This document shows positions 147-53,527 of a stretch of DNA of 64,000 nucleotides, piece after piece. The stretch comes from Bacilli bacterium. Lineage in GTDB: Bacteria > Bacillota_I > Bacilli_A > RFN20 > CAG-826. Location of the stretch: positions 17,685 through 81,684 of the forward strand of contig JAGBLL010000041.1 of the NCBI GenBank assembly GCA_017635465.1, written 5' to 3'. Both the position numbers and the translations under genes were made by a program. Below the pieces are notes generated by a model. It saw only the letters and a list, made by a program, of their open reading frames with translations, ran no database searches and was not told the DNA's origin. Positions within the stretch are counted from its first letter, which is position 1. Every line of letters begins with the position of its first letter.

Positions 147-222
147 TGGTACACTCTCAGGGATTCGAACCCTGGACCCCGAGATTAAGAGTCACGTGCT
201 CTGCCAGCTGAGCTAAGAGTGC
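147..222 (-). tRNA. tRNA-Lys, anticodon CUU
   Basis: The minus strand reads GCACTCTTAGCTCAGCTGGCAGAGCACGTGACTCTTAATCTCGGGGTCCAGGGTTCGAATCCCTGAGAGTGTACCA (76 nt). It folds by hand into a cloverleaf: D stem GCTC/GAGC, T stem CAGGG/CCCTG, GTTCGAATC T-loop, anticodon loop CTCTTAA and encoded CCA. There is a G1-U72 pair and a U29-U41 mismatch. Confidence 0.9.
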
Positions 223-5968: not shown

Positions 5969-6003
5969 GTTAATTTCTCCTTTCACAAAAAATGGAAACT
6001 GTG

Positions 6004-6477
6004 CTACTGCACAAAAGTTTTATTATTTATATCCTTTAAGAGGCTTGTGTAGGTGGTTTTGCGTTTTAATCCGAAGATTGTGAAAACCACTCCAAGTGTT
6101 AAAAGTATAACCGAGATAATAGCGAGCACTAGGAAAACCCAGAACTCAGGAGAAGAGACGGTAATCTTAAATTGATTATCGGCTTTTCTAGATAAAAGTA
6201 AGAAAACGATAGAAGCCACTAAAAGGATGACACCGATGGAGATATTACTCATACCTTTAGCGAAATCATTTCTTCCACGTTGAAGTTCAGCGTGGCAAGC
6301 TCTAGCTAATGATTTAACATCTTCTTCTGAGGCGTTACCATGAACTAAATGACCACATCTTGGACAGACATAGTTAATTTGTGTATCAGCATCTAAGCCT
6401 TCAATTTTTTGATATGTCGATTGTTTGCTTTCGATTTTATCTTCATCGAGCTTATAACCACAGTGATAACAATACAT
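6004..6477 (-). CDS. Zinc-ribbon membrane protein (157 aa)
   Basis: N-terminal CxxC (YHCGY) and CPRCG pair, then two hydrophobic helices. GGAGG SD. Function unknown. Confidence 0.75.
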   Translation of the reverse strand: MYCYHCGYKLDEDKIESKQSTYQKIEGLDADTQINYVCPRCGHLVHGNASEEDVKSLARACHAELQRGRNDFAKGMSNISIGVILLVASIVFLLLSRKADNQFKITVSSPEFWVFLVLAIISVILLTLGVVFTIFGLKRKTTYTSLLKDINNKTFVQ

Positions 6478-6499
6478 GATTAATGCCTCCTAAAATACA

Positions 6500-7984
6500 C
6501 TATTCTTTGACCCATTCTAAACCAGTAGCATCGTTAAAGATGATTTGGTAACTGGTTCTGTCATTATAAGTGTGATAAGTGTAAATACCACTTAATAAGA
6601 ATTTCTTACCGACGAATTGTTGTTCGGTATTCCAATATTCAAATTTCTTTTCTGGATCACCAGCATAAGAGAAGGTGAGGAAAGCTTCGAAATCGCAATC
6701 TTTGAAACCTAAAGTAATTTCATCACCTTTTGTGTTGATACGGAACTTATTGCATTCAACAGCTTCAGTAACTTTAACAGCGCAGTTTAAGCATTCAAAA
6801 CTACCATCTTTAGCAATTTTGCTTAATTCAGCGGCTTTATATTCAATCATATGTAAGCTTTGTTCGCCAACGTTTTCTTCGGCTTTGATGAGAATCTTGC
6901 AGTCTTCATCAGTCGCTTCGCTTTCGACGATTGGGAAGTGGCCTTCAGCACCTGTTAATTGGAAACCAAAGTTTTCACTATATTTAGCAAAGACACATAA
7001 TTGGATGAATGTGTTAATCTTACGATATTTGCTTGGGACAGAAGACATACCACAGAAGACGTTAATAGCAGCGTATTCCCCACCTTTAACGCCTTTACCT
7101 TCACCACGGATATCTTCACTATCGCTTTCTTCAAAATAGCTTTGTAAGTACATTGTGCCATTTGAATAACCCGCGACTGTACCACGGATTCTGACTTTAG
7201 TGCCATCTAATGGTGATTGGTAAGTCTTATCCTTAATATAATTCTCAGTAGCGACTTTTAAGTCTAATAAGCTTGTATTGACATAGTCACCAGTTGGGAA
7301 TGTATCTTCTGGGACACCAGAGAATAAATTGAGTTTATAATTCTTAGCTTGTGTTTCAGCAGCATAGAATGTATCAGCGTAATTAGGCATATCTTGAACG
7401 TTTTTAACCCAAGAATAGCCTTCTTGAACAATGGCGAGATTTAATAAATACAATTCGTTAAATGGCGCATCTTTCTTTGTTTCATTAATCCAAATTAAAG
7501 AGACAAATCTTTCACCGGTGGAGTCATATTGTGGACTACCATAGTCTTCTTGCGCTGTTGAAACAACGATTGTACCGTTTTCATTAGCGAGTTTTAATTT
7601 GCTCTTATTGAAATCACTAGCAGGTTGGCCCCATGGTTGAATACGTCCAGTTGATTCTGGAGTATCGATACCATAATAACGTGATTTGATGTTTAAACGG
7701 CTGGTAGTTGTTACTAGCGGAGTAAAGTGAGCGGTATCACCATCGATTGATTGATAAAGTTTGACTTGGCCAATGCCGTCTTTATAGAAGTCTCTACCTT
7801 TATAATCTAAAGATAATCTGACTGCCGAAGAAGCAGTATAGTCAACCCAGTTTTTATCACCACGTGATGGAGTGTTATCACCACTTGCACCACCAGAAGG
7901 ATTGCTTGTATTATTACAACCCGCTAATAAAGCAACAGTTAAGAAGGTGGCAACAGTTAATGTAATCTTTTTAAGTTTATTCAT
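6500..7984 (-). CDS. Surface lipoprotein nuclease, staphylococcal (thermo)nuclease-like, with a C-terminal OB-like extension
   Basis: Lipobox LLAG-C. The motif YYGIDTPES...PWG resembles the SNase catalytic core (DTPE). AGGAGG SD. Sits directly after the ABC importer genes, as in the mycoplasma SNase-lipoprotein/ABC loci I recall. Confidence 0.75.
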   Translation of the reverse strand: MNKLKKITLTVATFLTVALLAGCNNTSNPSGGASGDNTPSRGDKNWVDYTASSAVRLSLDYKGRDFYKDGIGQVKLYQSIDGDTAHFTPLVTTTSRLNIKSRYYGIDTPESTGRIQPWGQPASDFNKSKLKLANENGTIVVSTAQEDYGSPQYDSTGERFVSLIWINETKKDAPFNELYLLNLAIVQEGYSWVKNVQDMPNYADTFYAAETQAKNYKLNLFSGVPEDTFPTGDYVNTSLLDLKVATENYIKDKTYQSPLDGTKVRIRGTVAGYSNGTMYLQSYFEESDSEDIRGEGKGVKGGEYAAINVFCGMSSVPSKYRKINTFIQLCVFAKYSENFGFQLTGAEGHFPIVESEATDEDCKILIKAEENVGEQSLHMIEYKAAELSKIAKDGSFECLNCAVKVTEAVECNKFRINTKGDEITLGFKDCDFEAFLTFSYAGDPEKKFEYWNTEQQFVGKKFLLSGIYTYHTYNDRTSYQIIFNDATGLEWVKE

Positions 7985-7997
7985 ATTGCCTCCTTAA

Positions 7998-9449
7998 TTA
8001 TTTGATGTCTTTCTTAGCGTTATTAATCGCTGTAGCAAATGCATCATCAAGAGTGGATTTGCCATTTAAGACGTTAGTCACTAAAGAACCAACTTCTTTT
8101 CTTAATGTAGCACTGCCTGGGAAGACAGCAGAGTTGTAGTAGCGGCCATTAATGTCGTTTTGTATCACTAAGGCTGCTTCAGCGTAACCTTCACCATATT
8201 CAATGAAGTCACTGTATGTTTCAGTTGTGTAGCAAGAGTTTCTGACTGGAGAATAGCCTTCAGAACCATTGACACATAATGAAACGTTAACTTGTTTACT
8301 TGTTAAATATTTGATTAATTTCCAGCCATATTTAATCGCAGCAGCGTTTTGTGCTTCTGGTAATGATGGGTTATTGAGCATACAGACGGATGGACCTTGA
8401 GAGATGTAAGCGACTTGTTCACCCATGGTTGGAACTTTTGCGAATGCGACTTCAAATTGACCAGCATCAGGAATGGTATAACCTGTACCACCAGTAGAAC
8501 CGATAGAGAAGAGTGTTTTAACTTCTTTAAAGGAGTTACTAGCATATGTACCTTCCACGCCTTGCGTGGTTAATAAATGTTTATCGTGAGCATCTTTTAA
8601 AGCGGAAACGATATCTTTTGCTTTTTTTAAGTTAGCGCTTTCTTCGAAATCGACTTTACCTTTACCATCACTACCGATAGAAGAATAACCGATTTTGTTT
8701 TGATAAAGTTCAGTGATGAATAAGTTAGAATCACTATCATAATAGATTGGATATTCTAAGTTACTAGAAACTTGATCTTTATGTGCATAAGCTGCTTCCG
8801 CAATCTTGAGAAGTTGTTCCCAAGTGATGGTCTTCATATATTCAGCGACACGATCAACTGGAACTTCTGGATAAGCATAACTCATCGCCACTTTCACAGC
8901 GCTTAAGTTATAAGTCATGATTTCGGTTGATTTCATTAGTGGGATTAAGTATGTACCTTCTCTTTGTAATGAACGACCTTCATCTAAGTATGATTTAATC
9001 ATGTCACTTTCTGGCATGTTATCACCATAATCGGCTTCGGTACCGAATGTGGTAGCGCTGTCTTTTAAGAATTTATCAAAATTGACAACGTATTTGCCTT
9101 TTTCGTTACCTTCTAAAGCGAGATAGTCAGCGACATGGTCAGCATAAGCAATAGCGATTGTTGGGCTATCACCAGTAGCAATACCTGTTGTGACTTTACT
9201 TGGCATATCTTTATAGCCACCTTGATAAGAGAGATTGACTTCTAAATCAACGCCTTCTTTTTCTTTAACTAATTTAATAAAGGCATCGACTTTGCTCTTT
9301 AAAGCGGCTTCTGGTTTTTGACCAAATGTGTGCCAGAAAGTAACAGTAACTTTGCTAGAATCGGCACCAGATGAACCAGTGTTATTATTACCGCATCCCG
9401 CTAAGGAGGCGATTAATAATGGGAACATTAATATTGATATCTTTTTCAT
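7998..9449 (-). CDS. ABC transporter solute-binding lipoprotein (family 1, sugar/glycerol-phosphate-like), copy 2
   Basis: Lipobox SLAG-C. Size (483 aa) and sequence pattern are typical of extracellular solute-binding proteins. Paralogous to 9478-10968 (shared FITL/FSIGST.G/ISQGPS segments). Confidence 0.8.
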   Translation of the reverse strand: MKKISILMFPLLIASLAGCGNNNTGSSGADSSKVTVTFWHTFGQKPEAALKSKVDAFIKLVKEKEGVDLEVNLSYQGGYKDMPSKVTTGIATGDSPTIAIAYADHVADYLALEGNEKGKYVVNFDKFLKDSATTFGTEADYGDNMPESDMIKSYLDEGRSLQREGTYLIPLMKSTEIMTYNLSAVKVAMSYAYPEVPVDRVAEYMKTITWEQLLKIAEAAYAHKDQVSSNLEYPIYYDSDSNLFITELYQNKIGYSSIGSDGKGKVDFEESANLKKAKDIVSALKDAHDKHLLTTQGVEGTYASNSFKEVKTLFSIGSTGGTGYTIPDAGQFEVAFAKVPTMGEQVAYISQGPSVCMLNNPSLPEAQNAAAIKYGWKLIKYLTSKQVNVSLCVNGSEGYSPVRNSCYTTETYSDFIEYGEGYAEAALVIQNDINGRYYNSAVFPGSATLRKEVGSLVTNVLNGKSTLDDAFATAINNAKKDIK

Positions 9450-9477
9450 AAATTTTCTCCTTTCAATGAAGAAACGA

Positions 9478-10968
9478 TTACATATCTTTGAGTGTGTTAT
9501 TGACTGCTAAATCGAATTTTTCTTTTAAATATGTGTCATCAATGGTTTTGCCATCAGCAGCATCTTTTAAGACGTTAACCATTAAGGAGTTAACTTCTGT
9601 ACGGGCAGTTGAGGAACCTTTGAATGGAGGAGTTGTAAAGACTTTGTCAACAGTTGAGGAACTATAAACAGCGTTGAGAGCGGTTAATAATTCTGTACTA
9701 CGAGCATCTTTACCTTCTGTGGAGCAGTAATCACTATAAGCTTCACTTGTATAAGCAGAAGCACGAACTGGTAAATAACCAACTTCGATCGCCCAGGAAG
9801 CTGTGTTCTTGGTACTAACCATGTGCTTATAGAATAACCAAGCGGCTAATTGTCTATCTTTGTCACCATTGTGATCTAAGATACAAATGGATGGACCTTG
9901 AGAGATGATTTTAGCGGCTTTATCTTTTGCTTGTGGAATACGGGTAACACCGACATCGAATGTGTCAGCAACTTGGTTTTTAACGCCAGCGGTACTACCG
10001 ATGGAGAATAAGACGTTATTTTCTTTGAAATAGTTAGATGAATAGCTCTTACCAATGACACCTGGTGATCTTAAATAACCATTTTTAGAAGCATCGGCAA
10101 ATGTCTTCATTAAGCCTTTCATGTTGTCGTTATTGTAATCAAGGTGCGCTTCACCATATTCGTCAACACTGGTATAGCCATAACCATATTGTTGAGAAAG
10201 AGTAATGAATAAGTTAGCGTCACTATCGTAACCAACATAGGAATTCATGCTACCTTCTTTTTCAGTAATTAATGGTGAAGATGGATGAGCGGCATCATAT
10301 TCTTTGAAAGCTGGACATAATTTACCGAATAATTCTTCCCATGTTAAGGATTCAATATAAGCCTTATTCATGGTAATGCCTTTTGTGCTTAAGAATTGCA
10401 CGAGTTCACTATCGAATAAACGTGTTTCGTTATAGAACATCGCTTCTGTGGATTTGGAGAATGGTAAACAATATGTACCTTCAAGTGGGAATTCTTGACC
10501 TTCTTTAATATAAGCTTGGACTAAATCCGCTCTTTCTTGCTCTGTCCAACCATATTCAGCGTTGGTCATAAAGTCATCTAATTTGACGGCTTTGCCAAAG
10601 TCGAGATAGTCAACGACGTGGTCTGGATAAGCGATAACTAAATCGCCATATTCACCTGTTTGAATATCAGAAATTGTTTGAGAATGGATGGTATCGTAGT
10701 TACCACTGATCCAGCCATCTTCAAGTTTAATTTCGACATTTGGTTCAATTTCTTTAAATGAATCAACGAATGCTTGTAATTTCGCTTGATAGCCTTGAGC
10801 GTAAGCTTGTGTGAATTTAATGGTGACTTTGTGGTCGAAATGGCCAACTTTTTCACCTGGTTTTGATTCAGTAGATTGGTCACCACTATTACCACCGCCA
10901 TTGCTACATCCTGCTAAGGCAAGAATGGAAGTGAGAACCATTACTGGAACAAGAATTTTCTTTTTCAT
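9478..10968 (-). CDS. ABC transporter solute-binding lipoprotein, copy 1
   Basis: Lipobox ALAG-C, 496 aa, AGGAG SD. Paralog of the adjacent binding protein. Confidence 0.8.
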   Translation of the reverse strand: MKKKILVPVMVLTSILALAGCSNGGGNSGDQSTESKPGEKVGHFDHKVTIKFTQAYAQGYQAKLQAFVDSFKEIEPNVEIKLEDGWISGNYDTIHSQTISDIQTGEYGDLVIAYPDHVVDYLDFGKAVKLDDFMTNAEYGWTEQERADLVQAYIKEGQEFPLEGTYCLPFSKSTEAMFYNETRLFDSELVQFLSTKGITMNKAYIESLTWEELFGKLCPAFKEYDAAHPSSPLITEKEGSMNSYVGYDSDANLFITLSQQYGYGYTSVDEYGEAHLDYNNDNMKGLMKTFADASKNGYLRSPGVIGKSYSSNYFKENNVLFSIGSTAGVKNQVADTFDVGVTRIPQAKDKAAKIISQGPSICILDHNGDKDRQLAAWLFYKHMVSTKNTASWAIEVGYLPVRASAYTSEAYSDYCSTEGKDARSTELLTALNAVYSSSTVDKVFTTPPFKGSSTARTEVNSLMVNVLKDAADGKTIDDTYLKEKFDLAVNNTLKDM

Positions 10969-11021
10969 AAAAATTTCTCCTTTGAAATATTAAATTGTCA
11001 ACGACAATATTAATCAATTTA

Positions 11022-12005
11022 TTAGCCTTTGATACCCGCTCTTCCAACACCTTTCATGATGTATTTACGGAAGAAGACGAATAATAAGAATAACGGGACA
11101 GTGACGCAGAAGGAAGCGGCCATTTGATAACCGTATTCCACCATGCCTGTATCAATGTCTTGGAAGGCACTACCACGTAATCCGTTAGAGATTAAGCGGA
11201 ATTCTTCGTTTTTAGTAACTAAGTTTGGCCAGACATAGGAATTCCATGTGCCCATGAATTTAAGAATGGTAATGGAAATCAGTGTTGGAGCGGCAAGTGG
11301 GACCATGACTTTCCATAAGAAGTCCCAGTCGCTCTTACCATCCACTTTCGCGGCTAAATATAGTTCGTTAGGAATTTGTTTGAAGTTTTGTCTTAATAAA
11401 TAAATATGGAAGACAGAAACCACAAACGGCACAATCATCGCTAGATAAGCATCCATTCTAGTTTGATCTTTAATCCAACCAAAGGCGTTAACTGTTAAGT
11501 AGTTAGAAATAACCATCATTTCACCAGGAATCATCATCGTCATTAAGAAGATCATGAATAATGGTTCACGTCCTTTGAATTCGAGTCTAGCGAAAGCAAA
11601 AGCAGCGAAGATGGTAGTTAATAATGTGCCAGCGGTTGAGAAGATGGCAACGATAATTGTATTGAACATATAACCAGTGAAGTTAAATGTTTCAAAGACG
11701 TAAGAATAGTTACTCCACATAACAATATTTGGGAAGAATGTTTGTTGTGTGGCCATGATTTCATCGTTTTGTTTTAAGGAAGTAATGATCATCCAATAGA
11801 ATGGGAACATGACGGTTAAAGCCAAAGCGAGAATAAAGATGTAAGTCAAAACGGTGGTAATGATACGCACCACTTTTTCACGACGTTTAATTGATTCAAC
11901 GGTCTTACCACTTTCTACGATTGATAAAGTGATATTAGGATTGACGCGGACTTTCTTGAAATCAACGTATGTCATTTGTTCATTTGTCACGACTTGTTCT
12001 GCCAT
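11022..12005 (-). CDS. ABC transporter permease (MalG/UgpE-like)
   Basis: Six predicted TM segments. EAA-like loop AAKVDGKSDWDFLWKVMVPLAAP. GGAGG SD. Confidence 0.85.
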   Translation of the reverse strand: MAEQVVTNEQMTYVDFKKVRVNPNITLSIVESGKTVESIKRREKVVRIITTVLTYIFILALALTVMFPFYWMIITSLKQNDEIMATQQTFFPNIVMWSNYSYVFETFNFTGYMFNTIIVAIFSTAGTLLTTIFAAFAFARLEFKGREPLFMIFLMTMMIPGEMMVISNYLTVNAFGWIKDQTRMDAYLAMIVPFVVSVFHIYLLRQNFKQIPNELYLAAKVDGKSDWDFLWKVMVPLAAPTLISITILKFMGTWNSYVWPNLVTKNEEFRLISNGLRGSAFQDIDTGMVEYGYQMAASFCVTVPLFLLFVFFRKYIMKGVGRAGIKG

Positions 12006-12017
12006 AGCGTCATCCTC

Positions 12018-13118
12018 CTAGTAATGCACTCTCTTCTTACTAACGCCAAATTGGACGAAAGTGAAGATGAGAATAATGATAAATAGGAACACACCTGCTG
12101 CCGCAGCACGTGATGTATTACCTTTTTCAACGTTATCGTAAACGTAATAAACAATTGTTTCCATGTCTGGAATATTGGAGTTCTTACCCATTGTACCAGG
12201 ACCATTAAAGATAGCGACAACGGATGTATATTCTTTAAATGAACCGATGAATGATGTAATCATCAAATAAAGAATTTGTGGTGATAATAATGGAACTGTA
12301 ATCTTCCATAATGTTTTAGCTTTTGGACAACTATCGATTTGGGCGGCTTGATAGTATTGTTTATCAATACCTTGTAAACCAGATAATAAGATTAAAATCT
12401 TAAATGGAATGCTGTTCCAAACGATGTATAAGCATAATGGAATCATCGCAACCCATCTATCCGCACCATAAACCCAAACGGTGTTGGTATTAAAGATGAA
12501 GTTAATAACACCGGACTTATCAAAGATAACCGAGAAAACTAAACCAATAGCCACTGCGTTAGTGACATATGGTAAGAAGAAGACGGTTTGTAAGAATTTT
12601 TGGAACCACTTAATAGAATTAAGGGCGACAGAAATAATTAACGCTAAAAGAATAGATACAGGAACGGTAACAAACGTAATAATTAACGTATTAGGAATAG
12701 CGTACGTCGTAAAATACGTTTCTAGACCACCCTGACCAGTTTTCACCCAGCCAAAGATAACACCGAAGTTTTCTAAAGTGAAACCAGAGAAACGACCGGT
12801 AGCGTATTGATAATCTTTAGCAAATGAAATAAAGATGGTGTTGATTAATGGATAGAGCAAGAAGATGGAAATCAAAACCACTACTGGACCTAAATATAAC
12901 CAGGCTTTCCAGTTGTTTTTACTAGCGACATCTTCAATGCCTGTCACTTTATAAGGTTTTTTAATTTTCTTATTCGAAACTAAACGAATGACTTTATTCT
13001 CTTCCTCGTTTAAGCCTTCCTCGTATTCTGGAACTTTTTCAGGTTCGGCTTTGGGCAAGTGTTGATTGTTATGAGTCTTCTTTGGTTTCGATAGGAAATT
13101 GAGGAATTCAATACCCAT
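12018..13118 (-). CDS. ABC transporter permease (MalF/UgpA-like)
   Basis: Polytopic. EAA-like loop AAQIDSCPKAKTLWKITVPLLSP. AGGAG SD. Confidence 0.85.
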   Translation of the reverse strand: MGIEFLNFLSKPKKTHNNQHLPKAEPEKVPEYEEGLNEEENKVIRLVSNKKIKKPYKVTGIEDVASKNNWKAWLYLGPVVVLISIFLLYPLINTIFISFAKDYQYATGRFSGFTLENFGVIFGWVKTGQGGLETYFTTYAIPNTLIITFVTVPVSILLALIISVALNSIKWFQKFLQTVFFLPYVTNAVAIGLVFSVIFDKSGVINFIFNTNTVWVYGADRWVAMIPLCLYIVWNSIPFKILILLSGLQGIDKQYYQAAQIDSCPKAKTLWKITVPLLSPQILYLMITSFIGSFKEYTSVVAIFNGPGTMGKNSNIPDMETIVYYVYDNVEKGNTSRAAAAGVFLFIIILIFTFVQFGVSKKRVHY

Positions 13119-19369: not shown

Positions 19370-20497
19370 CTATTTATCAATTAAGATACTTTTAATTGTG
19401 TCTAATTTTTCCTTAGAAACACCGATGACGTTATTTAAATAGTTATATGTCTTTTCTTGTAAGGTTTCGCCTTCATAACCTTTAATTGTCTTACCATATC
19501 TATCATCGATATCTTTAGTTTCACAAATACCACTTATCTTAGAGAAATTTGAGAATAAATAATCACGATAAATATCTTCTTCGTTCATCCCACATAACGC
19601 TTCAATTAAATAGGCCATGCAGCCTGTTCTATCTTTACCAATCGCGCAGTGGAAATCTAAAGGATAATTGTTTTTATCCGCCAAAGCTTCAAAGAAAATC
19701 TTTATCTGCGCGGGATTATCATATAGATAAGCACTATGTTCACCAACATAAGTTAAAACATTTTCGCCACCATAATACATTGGTAAATGCATATAGTTTA
19801 CTTTGTCTCCGATTGGAGAAGCTTTGATATTACCGTTTTCTCCTGGTCTTCTTAAATCGATCTCTGTTTTAACTTTTAAAACATTTGTTAATGTATTAAT
19901 AGAATTGCTATCCAAGATAGAATCACCAGTTTCCGCTTCGTTAAAGCGACCACTGCGGTAGATTAAACCTTGTTTAATGCCATGACCGCCTAAATCACGC
20001 ATGTTCATGACGTTATTGACCAAAAGGTTACGTGGACCCTTGTTCGTCGTTTTAAAGGCACCTTTTTCGCTTTTAAACTGTACACTATCACTATAATAAG
20101 CAGTAACTTGGTAATAATATTTTGTATTTAATTTAAAATTGTATACTTCAATGCCATCAGGGTTAGTGATTTCACTTTGTGTATACCAAGGTGTTTCTTC
20201 ATTTTCTTCATATATATCAATAATGTAATATTTAGGATCTTTATTATTGTTAGATTTAGAACCTTCCCATTTAATAAAAACTGGTTGAGGTAATTCTTTA
20301 GATGAACTACCCGCAGCAATACCCGCGGTTGTTTTATAATCTTCCGCATTAATATATTTGTTTTGTAGTTCTGTATGGAAATCAAAACTAAATTCATCAT
20401 AATTAATTTTAAAATTAAAAGATGTGGGATTGCTTTGACACGCTAATAAAGAAGTAAGGAATATTAACAATGATATTGTGGAGATTATTTTTTTCAT
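19370..20497 (-). CDS. Surface lipoprotein with a protein-tyrosine-phosphatase-like (Y_phosphatase3-type) catalytic domain
   Basis: Lipobox SLLA-C. NMRDLGG...GLIYRSG...EIDLRR segments and the P-loop HCAIGKDRTG (CX5R) followed by DYLFSN. The N-terminal ~130 aa is a beta-rich domain. Confidence 0.8.
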   Translation of the reverse strand: MKKIISTISLLIFLTSLLACQSNPTSFNFKINYDEFSFDFHTELQNKYINAEDYKTTAGIAAGSSSKELPQPVFIKWEGSKSNNNKDPKYYIIDIYEENEETPWYTQSEITNPDGIEVYNFKLNTKYYYQVTAYYSDSVQFKSEKGAFKTTNKGPRNLLVNNVMNMRDLGGHGIKQGLIYRSGRFNEAETGDSILDSNSINTLTNVLKVKTEIDLRRPGENGNIKASPIGDKVNYMHLPMYYGGENVLTYVGEHSAYLYDNPAQIKIFFEALADKNNYPLDFHCAIGKDRTGCMAYLIEALCGMNEEDIYRDYLFSNFSKISGICETKDIDDRYGKTIKGYEGETLQEKTYNYLNNVIGVSKEKLDTIKSILIDK

Positions 20498-20517
20498 AAA
20501 TTTTTTCCTATTAGAAG

Positions 20518-20545
20518 ATTATAGCAATTAATTACTACTTTGTAA
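20518..20545 (-). promoter_or_regulatory. Candidate promoter of the long surface/transport array
   Basis: Minus strand TTACAA-16 nt-TGCTATAAT (extended -10). It lies between the tuf terminator and the ATG at 20497. Confidence 0.5.
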
Positions 20546-20549
20546 TCAC

Positions 20550-20577
20550 AAAAAAACTCACCTCGATTGAGATGAGT
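20550..20577 (-). terminator. Rho-independent terminator of tuf
   Basis: Minus strand ACTCATCTC-AATC-GAGGTGAGT hairpin (one mismatch) followed by T7. It lies ~25 nt after the tuf stop. Confidence 0.7.
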
Positions 20578-20601
20578 TTTGTTTGTTTTGTTTTAGTGAA
20601 A

Positions 20602-21786
20602 TTATTTGAGAATTTCAGAAACTGTACCAGCACCAACGGTTCTGCCACCTTCACGGATGGAGAATTTGGTACCTTTTTCCATGGCGATTGGGTGAATGAG
20701 TTCGACTGTTAATTCGACGTTATCACCAGGCATAACCATGTCGACACCAGCAGGAAGTGTAATAACACCTGTGACGTCGGTTGTACGGAAGTAGAATTGT
20801 GGACGATAGTTGCTTAAGAAAGCTGTATGACGGCCACCTTCTTCTTTTGTTAAAACGTAGACTTGACCTTTGAACTTGCTGTGTGGGGTAACTGTACCTG
20901 GTTTAGCAAGGACTTGACCACGTTCGACTTGGTCACGGTTGATACCTCTTAATAAGACACCAACGTTGTCACCGGCTTCGGCGTAATCAAGAATCTTACG
21001 GAAGGATTCAAGACCTGTAATAACAGAAGTTTGTGTTGGTTTGATACCAACGATTTCGACGTTGTCGCCTAATTTGGCTGTACCACGTTCGACACGGCCT
21101 GTAACGACGGTACCACGACCAGAGATGGTCATGACGTCTTCAATGGCTAATAAGAATGGTTTGTCGTTTTCACGAGCTGGAGCTGGGATATAGGAATCGC
21201 AAGCTGCCATTAATTCGATGATAGCTTTTTCAGCTTCTGGATCACCATCAAGAGCTTTTCTTGCGGAACCACGGATAACTGGAACTTCATCGCCTGGGAA
21301 GCCGTAGGAATTTAATAATTCACGGACATCCATTTCGACTAAGTCTAATAATTCTGGATCATCGACTAAGTCTGTTTTATTGATGAACACAACGATATAT
21401 GGGACACCGACTTGGCGGGCTAATAAGATGTGTTCACGAGTTTGTGGCATAACACCATCAGTACCGGCAACAACGAGGATAGCACCATCCATTTGAGCAG
21501 CACCAGTAATCATGTTCTTGACGTAGTCAGCGTGTCCTGGGCAGTCAACGTGGGCATAGTGTCTTGTCGCTGTTTGATATTCGATGTGAGCGGTGTTGAT
21601 TGTAATACCACGAGCTTTTTCTTCAGGAGCGGAGTCGATTTGAGCATAGTCAGTTTTGACTGCGCCACCTTGCTTTGCTAAGACAGATGTAATAGCGGCT
21701 GTTAATGTTGTTTTGCCGTGGTCAACGTGACCGATGGTACCAATATTGACGTGTTGTTTACTTCTGTCAAAATGTTGTTTTGCCAT
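20602..21786 (-). CDS. tuf: Elongation factor Tu
   Basis: 394 aa. [18 protein letters not shown] and NKTD GTPase motifs, full-length EF-Tu pattern, AGGAG SD. Confidence 0.98.
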
Positions 21787-21835
21787 AAAATTGAAATCTC
21801 CTTTCTTTCGTTAATAACAAGTTTGCAACGAAATC

Positions 21836-21864
21836 ATAATATAGCAATATTTTGTTTCGTGCAA
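21836..21864 (-). promoter_or_regulatory. Candidate internal promoter for tuf
   Basis: Minus strand TTGCAC-17 nt-TATTAT in the 106-nt fusA-tuf spacer. Confidence 0.4.
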
Positions 21865-21892
21865 TATCATTTGATATTACACAGTTTTATTT

Positions 21893-23968
21893 TTAGCGAG
21901 CGACACCCGCTTTTTTCAAAATTTCTTCTTGAACGTATCTTGGAGTTTCACCGTAATGGTCAAATTGCATGACGTAGTTTCCTCTACCTTGAGTCATACT
22001 ACGTAAGTCGGTGACGTAACCAAACATTTCGCTCAATGGTACTTCCGCTTCGATAATCTTAGCGTTAGCTCTTTGTGATTCACCAGTCATTTGTCCTCTA
22101 CGTCTACTGATATCACCAATGACATCACCATAGTATTGTTCTGGGACAGTAACTTCAATCTTCATGATTGGTTCTAAGATAACTGGTTGACACTTTTTAG
22201 CGGCTTCTTTTAAGGCCATAGAAGCAGCGATCTTATATGCGGCTTCACTAGAGTCGACATCGTGGTAACTACCATCATAGAGAGTAGCTTTGATATCGAT
22301 TACTGGGAAACCAGCGATCATACCTTTATTTAAGGCATCTCTTAAGCCGTCTTCAGTTGGTTTGATATATTCTTTAGGAACTGTACCCCCAACGATAGCA
22401 TCGACGAATTCAAAGCCTTTGCCTTCATTTGGTTCGAAACGGATCCAAACGTGACCGTATTGACCACGACCACCACTTTGACGGATGTATTTACCTTCGC
22501 ATTCGCCTGTAGCTTTAATTGTTTCACGGTATTCAACTTGTGGAGCACCGACGTTGACTTGAACGTTGAATTCACGTTTCATTCTGTCAACGATGATGTC
22601 TAAGTGTAATTCACCGACACCAGCAATTAATGTTTGACCTGTTTCTGGGTTTGTTCTCACGCGGAAGGTTGGATCTTCTTCAGCGAGTTTTTCAAGGGCG
22701 ATAGCCATCTTTTCTTGGTCAGCTTTGGTTTTTGGTTCAACAGCTTCTTCAATAACTGGAGCTGGGAATTCCATCTTTTCGAGAATGATGGTTTTACCAA
22801 CTTCACAGAGTGTATCACCAGTGATTGTATTCTTTAAGCCGACAACCGCACCGATGTCACCAGCGTGAAGTTCTGGAACTTCTTGACGGTGATTAGAGTG
22901 CATTAAGACGACACGGCCAATTCTTTCTTTCACACCTTTAGTGGAGTTATAGACATAGCTACCTGATTTTAATGTACCACTATAGACACGGACATAGGCT
23001 AAACGGCCGATGAATGGGTCTGTAGCAATCTTGAATGCTAAGCAAGCAAGTGGAGCGTTATCATCTGGTTCGCATGTGATTTCATTACCGCGATCATCAG
23101 TACCTTTCGCATGAGGGATGTCTAATGGGCTTGGTAAGTAATCAATAACACCATCTAATAAAGGTTGAATGTTTTTGTTTTTATAAGCGGAACCGCAGAA
23201 GACTGGGTGGAATTCACCAGTTAAAACTGCTTTACGGATTGCCGCTTTGGTTTGATCGACGTCTGGTTCTTTACCTTCTAAGACCATCATGAGAATTTCT
23301 TCATCGAAGTTAGATAAAGCTTCGAATAATTTCATTCTGAGTTCGAGAAGTTTTTCTTGATATTCTTCTGGAACTGGAACTTCATGTGGTTCTTCGTTGA
23401 GATCAGAAGCATAAACGTATGCTTTTTGTGTAATGACATCAATCCAACCTTTTAAGGATGATTCAATGCCAATTGGGTATTGCACTGCTTCCGCGTTAGC
23501 GCCTAAACGTTCTCTTAAGGAACGAACAGACATTTCATAGTCCGCACCGATAGCGTCAAGTTTGTTAACGAAGACGATACGTGGGACGTCGTATTTAGAA
23601 CCTTGTCTCCAAACTGTTTCAGTTTGTGGTTCGACACCGTTTTTACCATCTAAGACGGTAACGGCACCATCTAATACACGGAGGGATCTTTCAACTTCAA
23701 CGGTGAAGTCGACGTGTCCGGGAGTGTCAATAATGTTGATACGATTACCTTTCCATGTGGCGGTTGTAGCCGCAGATGTAATGGTAATACCTCTTTCTTG
23801 TTCTTGTTACATCCAGTCCATTGTTGAGCTACCTTCGTGGGTTTCGCCAATTTTGTGGATTTTACCTGTGAAGTAGAGAATACGTTCAGTGGTAGTAGTT
23901 TTACCAGCATCGATGTGCGCCATGATGCCGATGTTACGTGTATGTGCTAGATCATATTCGCGTGCCAT
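21893..23968 (-). pseudogene. fusA: Elongation factor G, otherwise full length (691 codons) but interrupted by an in-frame TAA at codon 54
   Basis: The minus strand from ATG 23966-23968 reads [71 protein letters not shown]...DTPGHVDFT, continuing in the same frame into the 546-aa ORF. The TAA is at 23807-23809 (23807 minus 21893 = 1914, divisible by 3). Confidence 0.9.
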
Positions 23969-23986
23969 AGTTCTACTCCTAACTGA

Positions 23987-24454
23987 TTACCAACGATAAT
24001 GTGAGTAAGCTTTGTTGGCTTCTGCCATTTTGTGGGTGTCTTCTCTTTTCTTAACTGACGCACCAGTGCCATTAGCGGCATCGATGATTTCGTTAGCTAA
24101 GCGGTCTTGCATGGTTTTTTCATTTCTTAAACGTGAATAGTTGACTAACCATCTTAAACCTAATGTAACTTTTCTTTCAGCTGAGACTTCGGTTGGGACT
24201 GGGAAGTTCGCACCACCGACTCTTCTCATCTTAAGTTCGACTTCTGGCATGATGTTGTTAATGGCGGTCGCGAAGACGTCCATTGCTGGTTTGCCAGTTT
24301 TTTCCTCGATTTTCTTAAAAGCACTGTAGAGAATGTTTTGTGCGGTGCCTTTTTTGCCATCGAGCATTAATTTGTTGATTAAACGTGTGACTAACTTTGA
24401 GTTATAGATTGGATCTGGTAAGACATCACGTTTTGTTGGATTTCCTTTACGCAT
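23987..24454 (-). CDS. rpsG: 30S ribosomal protein S7
   Basis: 155 aa, [27 protein letters not shown]... ending HYRW. Canonical S7 between rpsL and fusA. Confidence 0.97.
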
Positions 24455-24470
24455 AGTTGTTTCTTACCTC

Positions 24471-24890
24471 CTATTCTTCACTCTTTGGTTTCTTTGTACC
24501 GTATAAGCTACGACCTTGACGACGAGCTTCGATACCCGCACAGTCTAATGTACCTCTAACGATGTGATAACGCACACCTGGGAGGTCTTTAACACGGCCA
24601 CCTCTGATGATGACGGTACTGTGTTCTTGTAAATTGTGGCCTTCACCACCGATGTAAGCGGTGACTTCATAGCCGTTACTTAATCTAACACGAGCGTATT
24701 TTCTTAAAGCTGAGTTAGGTTTCTTTGGTGTCATTGTACCAACACGGGTGCAAACGCCACGTTTTTGCGCTGCAGGTTGTGCTGTTTCTTTTTTCTTCAA
24801 AGAATTCCATCTTTGACCAAGGGCAGGGGCTTTGGACTTGAATGTCTTATTTTGTCTGCCTTGACGCACTAATTGGTTAATTGTTGGCAT
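24471..24890 (-). CDS. rpsL: 30S ribosomal protein S12
   Basis: True start [12 protein letters not shown] at ATG 24888-24890, with AGGAG 7 nt upstream. The upstream 38 codons of the tracked ORF are a spurious extension. [10 protein letters not shown] motif. Confidence 0.95.
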
Positions 24891-25006
24891 AATTGCTCCT
24901 TTCAATAACTGTTTCATGTTGTGCTTACCACAATACCTGGTGTATCGGTACTTTCCCATTAAAAACGACCGAAATTGGTCTGGGTGTGATTTGCACACGC
25001 TCATAT

Positions 25007-25035
25007 ATATTATATAAGGATTAAAATACGCGCAA
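25007..25035 (-). promoter_or_regulatory. Candidate promoter of the rpsL-rpsG-fusA-tuf operon
   Basis: Minus strand TTGCGC followed by TATAAT (15-nt spacer) or TAATAT (17-nt spacer). This would give a leader of ~115 nt. The spacing is ambiguous. Confidence 0.3.
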
Positions 25036-25102
25036 TAAAAAGATATATAAAGTACACACTAGTCCTGGTGTGTCAATACCCACTATTGCTTCCAAAAAGC
25101 AA

Positions 25103-25132
25103 CAAAAAAGCCACTAAAACTAGTTAGTGGCT
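25103..25132 (-). terminator. Rho-independent terminator of the 233-aa lipoprotein gene
   Basis: Minus strand AGCCACTA-ACTAGTTT-TAGTGGCT followed by TTTTTTG. Confidence 0.7.
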
Positions 25133-25153
25133 AAATGTACAATAGTTTAACTA

Positions 25154-25855
25154 TTAAAGTTCAGCGAAAATTACATCGGCTGTGAGATCAAAAACGATAC
25201 GGTAATTTGGATTGAATAATTTGATTGTATCTTCATTACCTGTTAAAGCAACTGGTTGAGCAACCACAAATTGAGCATAGGTATCGTTATTTAAGCCACA
25301 ATCAGTATAAAGTCTATCACCATATACTTCGCAATCATCGCCATCGTTAACAACTACTCTTAATCCTCTATCAGCAATTGTGTAATCGTTTCCTGATTGA
25401 GATGTTTTAGCGGACATAACCATTTGATAGTTGCCAGCTTTTGGAGCTTTAACCTTAAATGTTACATAGGCTGTAGAATCATTGACTGGTCCGATTTTAC
25501 CACCGTCAAAAGTGAAACCTTCACCTGGTACTGCATCGTTAGCAGCGATTTTAACGCCAACTTTATTAGCAGCAGAATCAGTTAATGGTGTGTAGTTTTT
25601 GCCATCAGCATTAGCGGCAGGTGTGCCTTCAGTCCATGTGTGAGCGATTGGCATTGGGAACGCTACTGGTGCAGTGCTTGAGGTTGCAGGAGCAGCTGAG
25701 GAAGATGATGGTTTGCTGGATGGTGTTTTGCTGGATGATGGTTGTGCTGAAGCTGGTGCACTACTAGGTTTAGCGGATTCCTTATTACCATTACAGCCAA
25801 CGAGTGTAAGTGCTAATAAAATAGCGACAGCACTAATTCCTTTCTTAAAATTCAT
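25154..25855 (-). CDS. Small surface lipoprotein (233 aa): stalk plus a single copy of the shared beta-rich module
   Basis: Lipobox LTLVG-C and an S/P/A/K stalk, then IAHTWTEGTPAANADGKNYTPL...APKAGNYQMVMSAK. This aligns by eye with the C-terminus of the 992-aa protein (HAHAWVEGTVAQNTDGKNVTPL...APKAGKYEIRVSAK). The gene has its own promoter and terminator. Confidence 0.85.
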   Translation of the reverse strand: MNFKKGISAVAILLALTLVGCNGNKESAKPSSAPASAQPSSSKTPSSKPSSSSAAPATSSTAPVAFPMPIAHTWTEGTPAANADGKNYTPLTDSAANKVGVKIAANDAVPGEGFTFDGGKIGPVNDSTAYVTFKVKAPKAGNYQMVMSAKTSQSGNDYTIADRGLRVVVNDGDDCEVYGDRLYTDCGLNNDTYAQFVVAQPVALTGNEDTIKLFNPNYRIVFDLTADVIFAEL

Positions 25856-25926
25856 AAAAATTCCTTTCTTTGATGCATATCATATGTATTGCATCTAAAT
25901 CATTCAAAAATGACTTATTTGTATGT

Positions 25927-25956
25927 ATTATAGTGAGTTTACAAAATGTATTGCAA
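25927..25956 (-). promoter_or_regulatory. Candidate sigma-A promoter of the 233-aa lipoprotein gene
   Basis: Minus strand TTGCAA-18 nt-TATAAT. Confidence 0.5.
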
Positions 25957-25985
25957 TAAAAAATGTTGTGTGAACATGCTCATTA

Positions 25986-26013
25986 AATGAAAAGACCGCC
26001 TTTTAAAGCGGTC
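25986..26013 (-). terminator. Rho-independent terminator after acpP
   Basis: Minus strand GACCGC-loop-GCGGTC followed by TTTTCATTT. Confidence 0.5.
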
Positions 26014-26035
26014 AATTCATTATTTAGATTTAGCC

Positions 26036-26260
26036 TTATTTTTTATTAGCTTCGATATAATCGACGACATCTTTAACGGTGACGAAATTCATTGGTTCAT
26101 CGAATTGCACACCGAATTCATCTTCGATGGCCATTGCAAACATCATGATACCTAATGAGTCAAAATGTAAGTCATCGATTAATTTTGTGTCTAATGTGAC
26201 ATTATCTAAGTCGGCGTCTGGATCGACACCTTTCATTAATTCTTTTAATTTTTCTAACAT
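26036..26260 (-). CDS. acpP: Acyl carrier protein
   Basis: 74 aa and acidic, with the phosphopantetheine-attachment context LHFDSLGIMM. Confidence 0.85.
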   Translation of the reverse strand: MLEKLKELMKGVDPDADLDNVTLDTKLIDDLHFDSLGIMMFAMAIEDEFGVQFDEPMNFVTVKDVVDYIEANKK

Positions 26261-26310
26261 AATTAATTCCCTTTTGAACTTTGATATTATATCAACTTAT
26301 CCGTTTTCTA

Positions 26311-27312
26311 TCAACGGAGAGCGTCTTCTCTTTCTTTTTTAGTTAAGACTGCTTCACCACTAGCGTGGTTAATAATCATTCTAGAAAGATTAACAATCGC
26401 TCTTTCATCTGAGTTACCACGCGCTTTAATAACGAGTTTTCTTGTACCTAAGACAATACCACCACCTAAAGCGGAAATATCATATGATTTCATTAAATAT
26501 TGAGCGACTTCCATGAATTCTGGTCTATTTCTCTTTTTAGAAAGAACAACGATATCAGTGATGATACGTTTAGCCATACCTTCAACATTCTTTAAAACTT
26601 GGTTACCAGCAAAACCATCACAAACGATGACATCAACATCACCAGTTAATGTATTGTTGCCTTCAATGTTACCAACGAAATTGATTTCCTTATCTTCTTG
26701 TAAAATTGGGAATGTTTCTTTAACTAAGTGGTTACCTTTTGTTGGTTCCGCACCATTAGATAATAAACCAACACGAGGTTTTTCAATTTGATACATTCTT
26801 CTCATTAAGTCGCTACCTAACTTCGCAAAAGAATGTAATTGACCAGATGAACAGTCAATGGTTGCACCTGTATCCACTAAAGCGGTATAACTGCCCTTAC
26901 CATTTGGTAAGATAGCGGCCATACATGGTCTAGTCTTATTTTCATCCGCTAAGAATCTAAAAGAACCCATGAGAATGGCGCCACTACTACCAGCGGTAAT
27001 CATGCCAGCGTAGTCTTCATCATCTTTACCGGCTTCTTTCATCGCTTGGACTAATGAAGCTTGTGGCTTATTCATGATGCCAGTATATGGGTTTTCATAG
27101 TTTGTAATTGTTTCTTCAGCAGGAATAATCTTTAAACGTGATTGATCGATGCCAAGTTCTTTGATTTTTTCATTAATTAAGCCTTCTGGGCCCACTAAAG
27201 TGATTGATAAGTTAGGAAATTCTTTTAAAGCCATAGAAACGCCTAAAATAATCGTTTCTGGTCCTTTATCGCTTCCTAAAGCATCAATGACGATTTTGTA
27301 TTGTTTTTCCAT
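26311..27312 (-). CDS. plsX: Phosphate acyltransferase PlsX
   Basis: 333 aa. N-terminus KIVIDALGSDKGPE, a typical PlsX pattern, followed by acpP. Confidence 0.9.
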   Translation of the reverse strand: MEKQYKIVIDALGSDKGPETIILGVSMALKEFPNLSITLVGPEGLINEKIKELGIDQSRLKIIPAEETITNYENPYTGIMNKPQASLVQAMKEAGKDDEDYAGMITAGSSGAILMGSFRFLADENKTRPCMAAILPNGKGSYTALVDTGATIDCSSGQLHSFAKLGSDLMRRMYQIEKPRVGLLSNGAEPTKGNHLVKETFPILQEDKEINFVGNIEGNNTLTGDVDVIVCDGFAGNQVLKNVEGMAKRIITDIVVLSKKRNRPEFMEVAQYLMKSYDISALGGGIVLGTRKLVIKARGNSDERAIVNLSRMIINHASGEAVLTKKEREDALR

Positions 27313-27341
27313 AATGCTATATGTCCCTTTTCACAAAGGTT

Positions 27342-27350
27342 ATTATAGCA
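27342..27350 (-). promoter_or_regulatory. Candidate extended -10 element ahead of plsX
   Basis: Minus strand TGCTATAAT, ~30 nt upstream of the plsX ATG. No convincing -35. Confidence 0.3.
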
Positions 27351-27372
27351 TATTTATGTTATATAAATAAAT

Positions 27373-27981
27373 CTATTGTCTACCGTAGAGATAATAGTAG
27401 TTATCGTTTGTAAATCTTAAAGCCACTAATTCTTCGTATGGGGCATACATAAGTGTGAATATACCAGCGTCGATAGAACGGTCAACGCCAATATCATCTT
27501 TTGCGGTTAAAACGATAACATCAAGTTTGTAATTGATAGATTGTTCACTAACATAATTATCACCATTTACGGTTTCATAATTAACGCCTTGATAAGTGAA
27601 GGCTGGGAATTTTTTATAAACTGGTAAACCTTTCCAACCTGTTTCACCTTTTTCTCCTGGAGTCACCTGACTTGGTTGAGCAGGTGCATAACTACTTGTT
27701 GCTGGGCTCTTACTTCCTTGAGCGGAACCTGGATTAGACGATGCTACTGGGCTTTGACTTGTATCTGTTTGTCTACCTTTTGGAGAGAACATATCAATTG
27801 AGAATGAGCTAACGACCACTGCAAAGAGAGCTGTAGTTAAAACAGCGGTTGGAATAACGACCTTTGGCCATAGAGGAATACGTTCGAACCAAGATTTTTT
27901 CTTAACCTTGTACGGATTCTTTGCAAATTTATCGAGCTTCGCCATCCCCCTTTTGCGAAGCTTCTTTTCGATATCGTTCAT
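27373..27981 (-). CDS. Single-pass membrane protein, candidate anti-sigma factor
   Basis: Its start overlaps the sigma gene stop (ATGA, 27978-27981). Basic N-terminus, one TM helix (VVIPTAVLTTALFAVVV), an S/P/Q linker and an extracytoplasmic domain of ~95 aa. Confidence 0.6.
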   Translation of the reverse strand: MNDIEKKLRKRGMAKLDKFAKNPYKVKKKSWFERIPLWPKVVIPTAVLTTALFAVVVSSFSIDMFSPKGRQTDTSQSPVASSNPGSAQGSKSPATSSYAPAQPSQVTPGEKGETGWKGLPVYKKFPAFTYQGVNYETVNGDNYVSEQSINYKLDVIVLTAKDDIGVDRSIDAGIFTLMYAPYEELVALRFTNDNYYYLYGRQ

Positions 27982-28475
27982 CGTAGCTCCTTTCTCAGTT
28001 TCTCTAGAGCTTCAGCGTAGATTTTTCTCGCTGTAGACTCCGCAATACCTGTTAGTTCCACTATTTCTGGCCAGGTATATTGGAAAACTGCCTTGTAATA
28101 AGTAACAATCGTCTCTTTGTTGGTAAGTAGAGGTTCTAATAAATTGAGCATGACATTATAACTGTCTGTTTCCCCATACATCTCATCGATTAAATCGCTA
28201 TTCGCGGTTTCTTTTTTCTTTCTTAAAAAGTCCAAAGCGGTGTTTCTTGAAATAGTTGTTAAGAAAGACTTAATTTTCGATGGATCTTTTAAGTCAGTAC
28301 GATGTTCCATGGCCTTAATAAAAGCGTCATTCAAAACATCTTCACAATCTTCTGGTTGTGAGATGTAGGAAGCGATGACGAAGTACATGAGATTTTTATA
28401 TTCTTCATAGACTTCACCCATGGCTTCTTGATTACCTTGAATGAACGCATGGATCGTTTTTGGGGAAATGCTCAT
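27978..28475 (-). CDS. ECF-type sigma-70 family RNA polymerase sigma factor
   Basis: 165 aa. Region-2-like segment (YKNLMYFVIASYI...EDVLNDAFIKA) and a region-4 HTH (WPEIVELTGIAESTARKIY). Confidence 0.65.
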   Translation of the reverse strand: MSISPKTIHAFIQGNQEAMGEVYEEYKNLMYFVIASYISQPEDCEDVLNDAFIKAMEHRTDLKDPSKIKSFLTTISRNTALDFLRKKKETANSDLIDEMYGETDSYNVMLNLLEPLLTNKETIVTYYKAVFQYTWPEIVELTGIAESTARKIYAEALEKLRKELR

Positions 28476-37748: not shown

Positions 37749-37879
37749 ATTCTTGACCTCCTTTTTCTAAAATTGTTTTGAAGGCTCCAATATACGGTGG
37801 GCTTTATAGATACGCCTCGGTAACATTATTAAGACTATTTCGTCCGTTACTGTCTTAGGTATATTGTGCTTTGTTTTAA
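37749..37879 (-). promoter_or_regulatory. Possible L10 (rplJ) autoregulatory leader
   Basis: A 131-nt untranslated spacer between rplA and rplJ, relatively G/C-containing. Firmicute rplJ genes commonly carry an L10-leader RNA here. I did not verify the fold. Confidence 0.3.
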
Positions 37880-43471: not shown

Positions 43472-44692
43472 CTATTGTAGGTTTTGTTTGATGTAAGCAG
43501 CGAATGCTAAAGAGCCAGTAACTAAAATGCAATCATCAGGATATTTTTCCATCAATTCTTTAAGCGCCGCAATGGCGTCTTCTTTGAATGCATAGTCTTC
43601 CATATATAAGAAGAATTCCTCTTCTTTTCTTGCTCTTTCATGTGGGAATGTTGTTAAAGTAATGTCTTTACTATATTCACCTAAATAGGCAATCATTCTT
43701 TCAATATTTTTATCTCTAAAACAGGCGAATAAAATATGTATTTCACGATTTTGAGCGACGTTTTGCAAAGATTTTACAAGGTTATTGACACCTTCTGGGT
43801 TATGAGAACCATCTACAATAAGAAGTGGCTTTTCTTTTAATATTTCCATTCTTACTGGCATATATGTATTAGCCAATCCTTCTTTAATAGATTGTTCACT
43901 AACATTGAAGCAATCATTAAGTTTATTAACAACTTCTAAAGCGATACAAGCATCTTTTAAAGAATATGTGGCAGCGGAATTAATTCTTAAATTATCAAGC
44001 GTACCATATGCAAAATTAAAGCCTTTATTTTCATACACTACTTTTGCAGGTTCAACCGCTACTGAAAGTTGTGAGTTATTTTCCTTTGAAACTTCCACGA
44101 TTGTGTTAATAGCTTCTTCATCTAAGATACCAGTAATGACAGGAACTTCTCTTTTAATAATGCCAGCTTTTTGGTAAGCAATTTCACAAATAGAGCGACC
44201 TAAGAAAGCAGTGTGCTCTAGGCTAATTGAAGTGATGACAGAAGCGATTGGAGTAAAGATATTTGTAGCGTCGATTTCACCACCCATACCACATTCAATA
44301 ATCGCAATATCACACTTCTGTTTTTCAAAATAAGTTAAAGCAATAAATGTTTGAATCTCAAATGGAGATAAAGAGTATTTATCTATGAGCTTAGCGTTAT
44401 GTTCAATGATTTCCACCATTTCTTCATCGCTAATATTTTGTCCATTAACATTAATCATTTCATTAACGATTTCTAAATATGGAGAAGTAAATAAACCAAC
44501 TTTATAGCCTTGAGCACGATAGATATTAGCTAAATAATTAGCGGTACTACCTTTACCATTACTACCAGCAATATGAATAGAAGGAATCTTATAAGAAAAA
44601 TTGACTTTGTTAAGGAAAGAGTCAAAGTTTTCACGTTGGTATTCGCCATGACCAACTTTATCGAAATATGTTTTTAAATCAATTTTGCTCAT
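43472..44692 (-). CDS. folC: Folylpolyglutamate synthase / dihydrofolate synthase
   Basis: Mur-ligase P-loop HIAGSNGKGST. I prefer the ATG at 44690-44692 (GGAG 9 nt upstream, just after the smpB stop) over the ATG at 44707. Confidence 0.85.
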   Translation of the reverse strand: MSKIDLKTYFDKVGHGEYQRENFDSFLNKVNFSYKIPSIHIAGSNGKGSTANYLANIYRAQGYKVGLFTSPYLEIVNEMINVNGQNISDEEMVEIIEHNAKLIDKYSLSPFEIQTFIALTYFEKQKCDIAIIECGMGGEIDATNIFTPIASVITSISLEHTAFLGRSICEIAYQKAGIIKREVPVITGILDEEAINTIVEVSKENNSQLSVAVEPAKVVYENKGFNFAYGTLDNLRINSAATYSLKDACIALEVVNKLNDCFNVSEQSIKEGLANTYMPVRMEILKEKPLLIVDGSHNPEGVNNLVKSLQNVAQNREIHILFACFRDKNIERMIAYLGEYSKDITLTTFPHERARKEEEFFLYMEDYAFKEDAIAALKELMEKYPDDCILVTGSLAFAAYIKQNLQ

Positions 44693-44693
44693 A

Positions 44694-45152
44694 CTAGTCT
44701 TCTCCATTCCTAATGCTGCGTTTAATGTCTCTTTGTTTAATCGTTTCTCTCTTGTCGTAAAGTTTTTTACCTTTAGCTAAGGCGATTTCGATTTTAGCTT
44801 TGCCTTTTTTAAGATAGACACGAGTAGGAACAATTGTGTAACCATCACGTTTAATCTTTTCTTCAAACCATTTAATTTCCTTTTTGTGAAGCAATAACTT
44901 TCTAGTTCTTAAAGGATCGTGATTAAAGATGTTGCCTTTATCGTATGGATTGATGTGCATGTTAAGAACTTCCATCTCTCCACTTCTAATAACGATATAA
45001 GAATCATTTAAAGAGCAACCATGGGTTCTGAGTGATTTAATTTCAGTGCCTTTTAAAACAAGGCCACATTCAGTGAATTCACTAAGAAAATAATTGAAGT
45101 GGGCCTTCTTATTACTCGTAATGATTTTAATGCCTGTTTCTTCCTTGCTCAT
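44694..45152 (-). CDS. smpB: SsrA-binding protein SmpB
   Basis: 152 aa. NKKAHFNYFL...GTEIKSLR...LLLHKKEI pattern. Confidence 0.93.
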   Translation of the reverse strand: MSKEETGIKIITSNKKAHFNYFLSEFTECGLVLKGTEIKSLRTHGCSLNDSYIVIRSGEMEVLNMHINPYDKGNIFNHDPLRTRKLLLHKKEIKWFEEKIKRDGYTIVPTRVYLKKGKAKIEIALAKGKKLYDKRETIKQRDIKRSIRNGED

Positions 45153-53364: not shown

Positions 53365-53527
53365 TTTAAAAATTTCCTTTCTGTAGAAACGACAAATATG
53401 AATTGAGGGCAGATAGTTGAACGAAATATTCAACTTTTTGCTATCTTTCGTAAATCATTATAAACCTTTTTATTACTAAAAAGTAGAATATTTATATTAT
53501 TTATACGATTGTGAAAAAATGAACGCA

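Follow-up and report, generated by a model that had tools for sequence, protein, structure and literature searches.

We suggest that the in-frame TAA found at codon 54 of fusA (23807..23809, minus strand) is very probably a local sequencing or assembly error of this one assembly, absent from the organism itself. This view is built on comparing sequences, and by the same comparison the organism's housekeeping fusA has GAA (Glu) as its codon 54. In the window, by which we mean the whole 64,000-nucleotide stretch of DNA that was analysed, the plus-strand base at 23809 is A; in all other assemblies it is C, which gives GAA or GAG (Glu). fusA is an essential gene, and a stop at codon 54 would remove everything after the P-loop. 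Were the stop real, the cutting of an essential translation factor by the main terminator would imply an unknown form of recoding or suppression. The first-pass annotation had offered three options for the stop, namely a base-call or assembly error, a recent nonsense mutation that is tolerated, and site-specific readthrough; the presence of C at 23809 in all the public evidence supports the first of these and neither of the two biological ones.

The interrupted gene is the canonical elongation factor G (21893..23968, minus strand). Its frame opens with the ATG at 23966-23968 and closes with a TAA at 21893-21895; these 2076 nt hold 691 sense positions and the terminator, and translation bears out the earlier reading of TAA as minus-strand codon 54 of an otherwise full 691-codon EF-G. 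The codons before the internal stop encode a typical EF-G N-terminus. After the stop, the frame continues uninterrupted through DTPGHVDFT and all five EF-G domains. The genes for S12, S7, EF-G and EF-Tu follow one another on the minus strand as an rpsL-rpsG-fusA-tuf (str) operon: rpsL (24471..25004; PF00164), rpsG (23987..24454; PF00177), which lies directly upstream of fusA, and tuf (20602..21786), which adjoins fusA downstream and completes the operon. The longest ORF for rpsL is 177 aa, and other assemblies call it at 139 aa. An intact sister allele of fusA scores 1115.9 bits on the NCBIfam TIGR00484 EF-G equivalog model (cut-off 659.4), and residues 55-691 of the window's own product score 1002.1 bits by themselves. 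The sister allele falls below the cut-offs of the EF-G2 model (530 bits vs 890) and the tet_protect model (386 bits vs 775), as well as those of the RF3, LepA, TypA and Tet(M)-type models, and its top match among solved structures is the EF-G of 7pao (E = 5e-299). In the sister contigs, fusA carries the complete Pfam domain set of EF-G. A single unbroken frame holding the P-loop, switch I, DTPGH and NKxD is lacking in the window's fusA and present in six sister contigs (L081-L083 and L085-L087), where the gene is called intact with products of 691-692 aa (691 aa in L081).

The host is a member of the Bacilli from the rumen or gut, uncultured and related to Mollicutes and Erysipelotrichia. The runs that contain the window sequence are gut metagenomes of bovine, ovine and other origin. 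The nearest species-level genomes in GTDB are rumen 'Bacilli bacterium' metagenome-assembled genomes (MAGs), with 86% protein identity; next come Erysipelotrichaceae and Mycoplasmatales-like MAGs, at about 63-66%. With its closest GTDB species genomes only 86% identical in protein, the window's own species is not represented there.

An exact look-up of the S7 protein matched 23 public contigs, and 10 of these 23 (L081-L090), all from the same strain or sister strains, were compared with the window. A parallel look-up with EF-Tu yielded no fusA-bearing public contigs beyond those already found with S7. Codon 54 is GAA or GAG in all ten. One of them is scaffold_41 of ERZ28654521 (L081, 198 kb), which aligns without gaps to window positions 19987-28454 and shows two differences in 8,468 nt, at 23809 and 23827. 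Another part of this scaffold (L096) shows 100.000% identity with window positions 40797-61654 (20,858 nt), and we therefore take scaffold_41 and the window to come from the same strain. In scaffold_41 codon 54 is GAA, one G-to-T change away from the stop, as stated earlier. The variant is missing from independent assemblies, and also from read sets, of the same strain.

The second of these private substitutions, at 23827 on the minus strand, was overlooked in the first-pass annotation. It lies 18 nt from the first and replaces GCA (Ala48) with TCA (Ser48), so that E54* (GAA to TAA) and A48S (GCA to TCA) are both coding-strand G>T changes. Had two differences been placed independently over the 29,326 compared nt, the chance of their lying no more than 18 nt apart would be about 1e-3, and it is very likely from this clustering that both changes have one origin. 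When these two bases are set aside, the window's fusA is identical to those of L081 and L083. Against more distant members of the population, the differing codons are 22 synonymous and 7 non-synonymous (L085) or 26 synonymous and 3 non-synonymous (L087), and this mostly synonymous pattern indicates a gene under purifying selection and not a decaying copy.

Among 85 EF-G homologues, 61 have E at codon 54, 15 have A, 9 have V and none has a stop, so the description of this glutamate as invariant was overstated. The claim that restarting translation would cost the G-domain motifs stands: the first ATG, GTG or TTG past the internal stop is the ATG at 23533, which opens a 546-aa ORF, and a protein begun there would be without the P-loop, switch I and DTPGH. 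Neither this 546-aa C-terminal product nor the 53-aa N-terminal peptide with Ser48 occurs among 153 billion indexed gene positions.

Read sets tell the same story as the assemblies. The evidence here consists of Logan contigs, from which rare variants are dropped and which demonstrate presence rather than absence. When Logan contigs of runs X1-X4 were compared over window positions 23300-24300, 23809 was C in every contig that spans it, and one X1 contig (23598-23824) is identical to the window except for this C. In X5, X6, X7 and X9, each contig spanning 23809 mismatches the window and none matches its A; the contigs that do match perfectly end at 23807-23808. Position 23827 is likewise C in contigs of X3, X4, X5, X6 and X9. 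It had been proposed that reads supporting C at 23809 would mean an assembly error, and C is what all the public evidence gives: the ten contigs and the spanning contigs of X1-X4 have it, and no spanning contig of X5-X7 or X9 has the window's A.

We also searched public runs with a 61-mer centred on the TAA base, which covers every 31-mer containing that base. The 31-mers of the A variant were found only in a few unrelated amplicon-like runs, and we rejected them as support for the stop, given that A occurs there as about 0.1% noise beside C; in X31, for example, the C contig has a depth of 4,986 and the A contig 7.3. X30 and X31 are small data sets from unrelated organisms in which 23772-23824 is covered at a depth of roughly 3,000-12,600, while its flanks have hardly any coverage. 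This segment has the look of a target for primers or amplicons, and such amplicon-like depth explains the spurious k-mer matches.

How the error arose can be sketched from the depth of coverage around the two bases. In X1 and X2, the strain is present at a depth of only about 5-9x, and the contigs break at about 23801-23824 and 23885-23909, leaving 23844-23877 uncovered. The flanking ultra-conserved motifs in these runs have depths of 160-780, contributed by other species. Taken together, the contig breaks and the high-depth conserved flanks place both odd bases in a thin stretch between tangles of the assembly graph. Both G>T changes sit in some 100 nt (roughly 23825-23885) that separate two ultra-conserved EF-G motifs, one of them the P-loop; the k-mers of these motifs are common to many co-occurring species at depths of hundreds, against the strain's own 5-9x. 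One erroneous or damaged template, or its PCR duplicates, may have carried both changes, and the assembler may then have taken that molecule as the consensus path through a thin and tangled region of the graph. As to what precisely started it, a read error, damage to a template, the assembler's choice of path and a later corruption of the record are all candidates.

G>T changes are a classic signature of oxidative (8-oxoG) damage and of G/T miscalls in four-colour Illumina chemistry. The fusA pair resembles such artefacts in that both are G>T changes of one strand, no more than a read length apart, as would be expected from a single molecule. Unlike these artefacts, which normally stay at a low allele fraction, the fusA pair would have had to win the consensus, through either very low coverage or duplicates. 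Local assembly errors in metagenome-assembled genomes are known to corrupt protein-coding sequences (Chen et al. 2020, Genome Res, PMC7111523). The fusA stop is like the errors described there, being a short consensus stretch that no other assembly supports, corrupting a coding gene in a low-coverage and graph-tangled region. It differs in that descriptions of such errors usually stress indels and misjoins, whereas here we have paired substitutions, and in that we infer the absence of read support in the source sample.

Two observations count against the stop being an error. First, the window holds six more private differences, at 4661, 5576, 5584, 7373, 15089 and 38713. To judge from their sequences, these look like ordinary strain polymorphism, synonymous or conservative, and they mean that the window cannot be just the scaffold_41 reads assembled anew. 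Second, a related strain that is 98% identical to the window (L084, ERZ28634765 scaffold_932, sample SAMN15871371) has TAA for GAA at codon 588 of its own fusA, a coincidence that would be strange were such errors rare. That TAA, at nt 2811 of the contig (window 22205-22207), is again a G>T change and is the only difference from the sister contig L085 over 4,768 nt. The corresponding C>A at 22207 is absent from contigs of X3 and X10-X12, runs that are not known to include the source of L084. All three assembly-private fusA changes are therefore coding-strand G>T, and two of the three turn GAA into TAA. We estimate that about 1 in 6 coding-strand G>T changes in the Glu-rich fusA would make a stop; with this G>T bias, and with detection itself biased towards stops, the L084 coincidence is compatible with an error process. 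If the window's TAA were instead real and decoded, codon 588 of L084 would be a hint that an essential gene repeatedly acquires nonsense alleles which are tolerated.

The same observations provide what support there is for a genuine but non-functional allele, in which some of the sampled population truly carried a recent nonsense mutation, linked to A48S, that then entered the assembly. Its source could be dead or dying cells, a transient merodiploid, or cells rescued by a second EF-G-like gene. The other natural-looking private differences would then reflect a source population slightly distinct from that of the other assemblies; natural differences also cluster at times, as do 5576 and 5584, which are 8 nt apart; and L084 would provide a second fusA GAA>TAA in a public assembly. 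We consider this explanation unlikely, as it has to contend with the gene being the canonical str-operon fusA, essential by established knowledge, with the allele being seen in no other assembly or run examined, and with the rest of fusA showing no relaxed constraint.

Far less probable is programmed recoding, by which UAA would be read as sense, through site-specific readthrough or a suppressor tRNA with a UUA anticodon, and full-length EF-G would still be made. In common with known cases of bacterial stop readthrough or suppressor-tRNA decoding, the fusA stop is in frame and a conserved protein continues beyond it; indeed the frame after the stop is perfect and the downstream protein fully conserved. 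A site of this kind should be kept in relatives, however, and the position is a sense codon in 85 of 85 homologues and GAA or GAG in the ten nearest contigs. Moreover, UAA is the least leaky stop codon in bacteria, and in the window TAA is the main terminator, ending 31 of the 47 long ORFs (TAG ends 13 and TGA 3). The earlier observation that TAA genuinely terminates neighbouring genes, at 2990-2992 and 57743-57745, is confirmed, and no in-frame TAA other than codon 54 was found at a conserved position of the window, so a reassignment of TAA finds no support. The DNA flanking the stop is identical to that of the GAA alleles, which argues that there is no dedicated recoding signal, and the sole tRNA in the 64-kb window is Lys-CTT. 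Thus, unlike programmed readthrough, the fusA stop is kept in no relative, consists of the major terminator UAA, and has no distinguishing context. A search of the literature on fusA premature stops or readthrough returned nothing relevant to a natural in-frame stop in a bacterial fusA. We regard it as similarly improbable that TAA and A48S are both genuine and fixed in the sampled strain, with full-length EF-G produced through decoding of UAA by a suppressor tRNA or through high-level readthrough.

There is also very little chance that the gene is a decaying fusA paralog, a pseudogene copy with an intact fusA elsewhere in the genome, as had been envisaged should conservation in this copy prove relaxed: nothing but the stop itself speaks for it, while the gene occupies the canonical rpsL-rpsG-fusA-tuf position, belongs with the EF-G equivalog (1115.9 vs 659.4) and not with EF-G2 (530 vs 890), carries no other lesion, has the same nucleotides as the intact alleles save for two bases, and differs within the population mostly at synonymous sites.

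With an assembly-private error as our preferred reading, the practical value of the case is as a curation flag: positions 23809 and 23827 of the fusA call need either correction or a mark that they lack support. More generally, when a highly conserved gene in a low-coverage metagenome bin shows a private nonsense change, the reads should be consulted before that change is given a biological reading.

Two other disrupted frames in the window had been proposed to share a cause with the fusA stop. This is not upheld, since both lesions are reproduced base for base elsewhere and are of different kinds, one a TGG>TGA change and the other a frameshift. The first is an in-frame TGA at a conserved Trp (55894-55896, minus strand) in a gene for a small multi-pass membrane protein (about 55360-55969; context MEKFLNALSKPAKWIFVIGGFFYAT*FAIM...). 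The lesion recurs with zero differences in scaffold_41, an SRR12529157 Logan contig (L097) and an X1 contig, whereas 12 homologous loci, among them a locus of 98% identity, have TGG (Trp) there. Its presence in three independent assemblies or contig sets indicates a genuine TGG>TGA transition and a nonsense allele of the strain. UGA is the leakiest stop codon, and decoding by the near-cognate tRNA-Trp would restore the wild-type residue. TGA otherwise serves as a terminator in the window. A code in which TGA encodes Trp (code 4) was considered for the window and rejected: three genes terminate in TGA, in two cases with an ATGA overlap, and in-frame TGA codons are absent from all the long conserved ORFs.

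The second lesion is a frameshift in a gene for a surface lipoprotein with a Big_2 domain (minus strand; at about 52860-52880, within an ORF overlap at 52762-52960), near CAATCTTCTTGGGCC at about 52865-52880, and there is no homopolymer tract at the site. It splits the gene into two ORFs, 52759-53433 and 51776-52939, of 224 aa and 324 aa, both of which are called as genes in independent assemblies. The region is identical in scaffold_41, the SRR12529157 Logan contig and an X1 contig, from which we conclude that the frameshift is real in the strain.

A few further features of the window were recorded. Within rpsL, at 24600-24675, there are nine differences common to L082 and an X1 contig, all at coordinates divisible by 3 and hence in one and the same position of the codon; the population thus has a second rpsL haplotype, which looks like a short recombination tract. 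One contig from another sample (L094, ERZ28655215 scaffold_6906) has a 16-nt length difference from window positions 43472-44707, inside a Mur-ligase/FolC-like gene, which is called at 328 aa there as against 406-411 aa and is broken in that one assembly only. The argS ORF in the window is 574 aa long, and its true start codon lies downstream of the ORF start. The tRNA-Lys(CTT) gene (147-222, minus strand) is ordinary, as is the ribosomal protein L10 leader (RF00557, 45.9 bits; 37759-37877, minus strand) upstream of rplJ.
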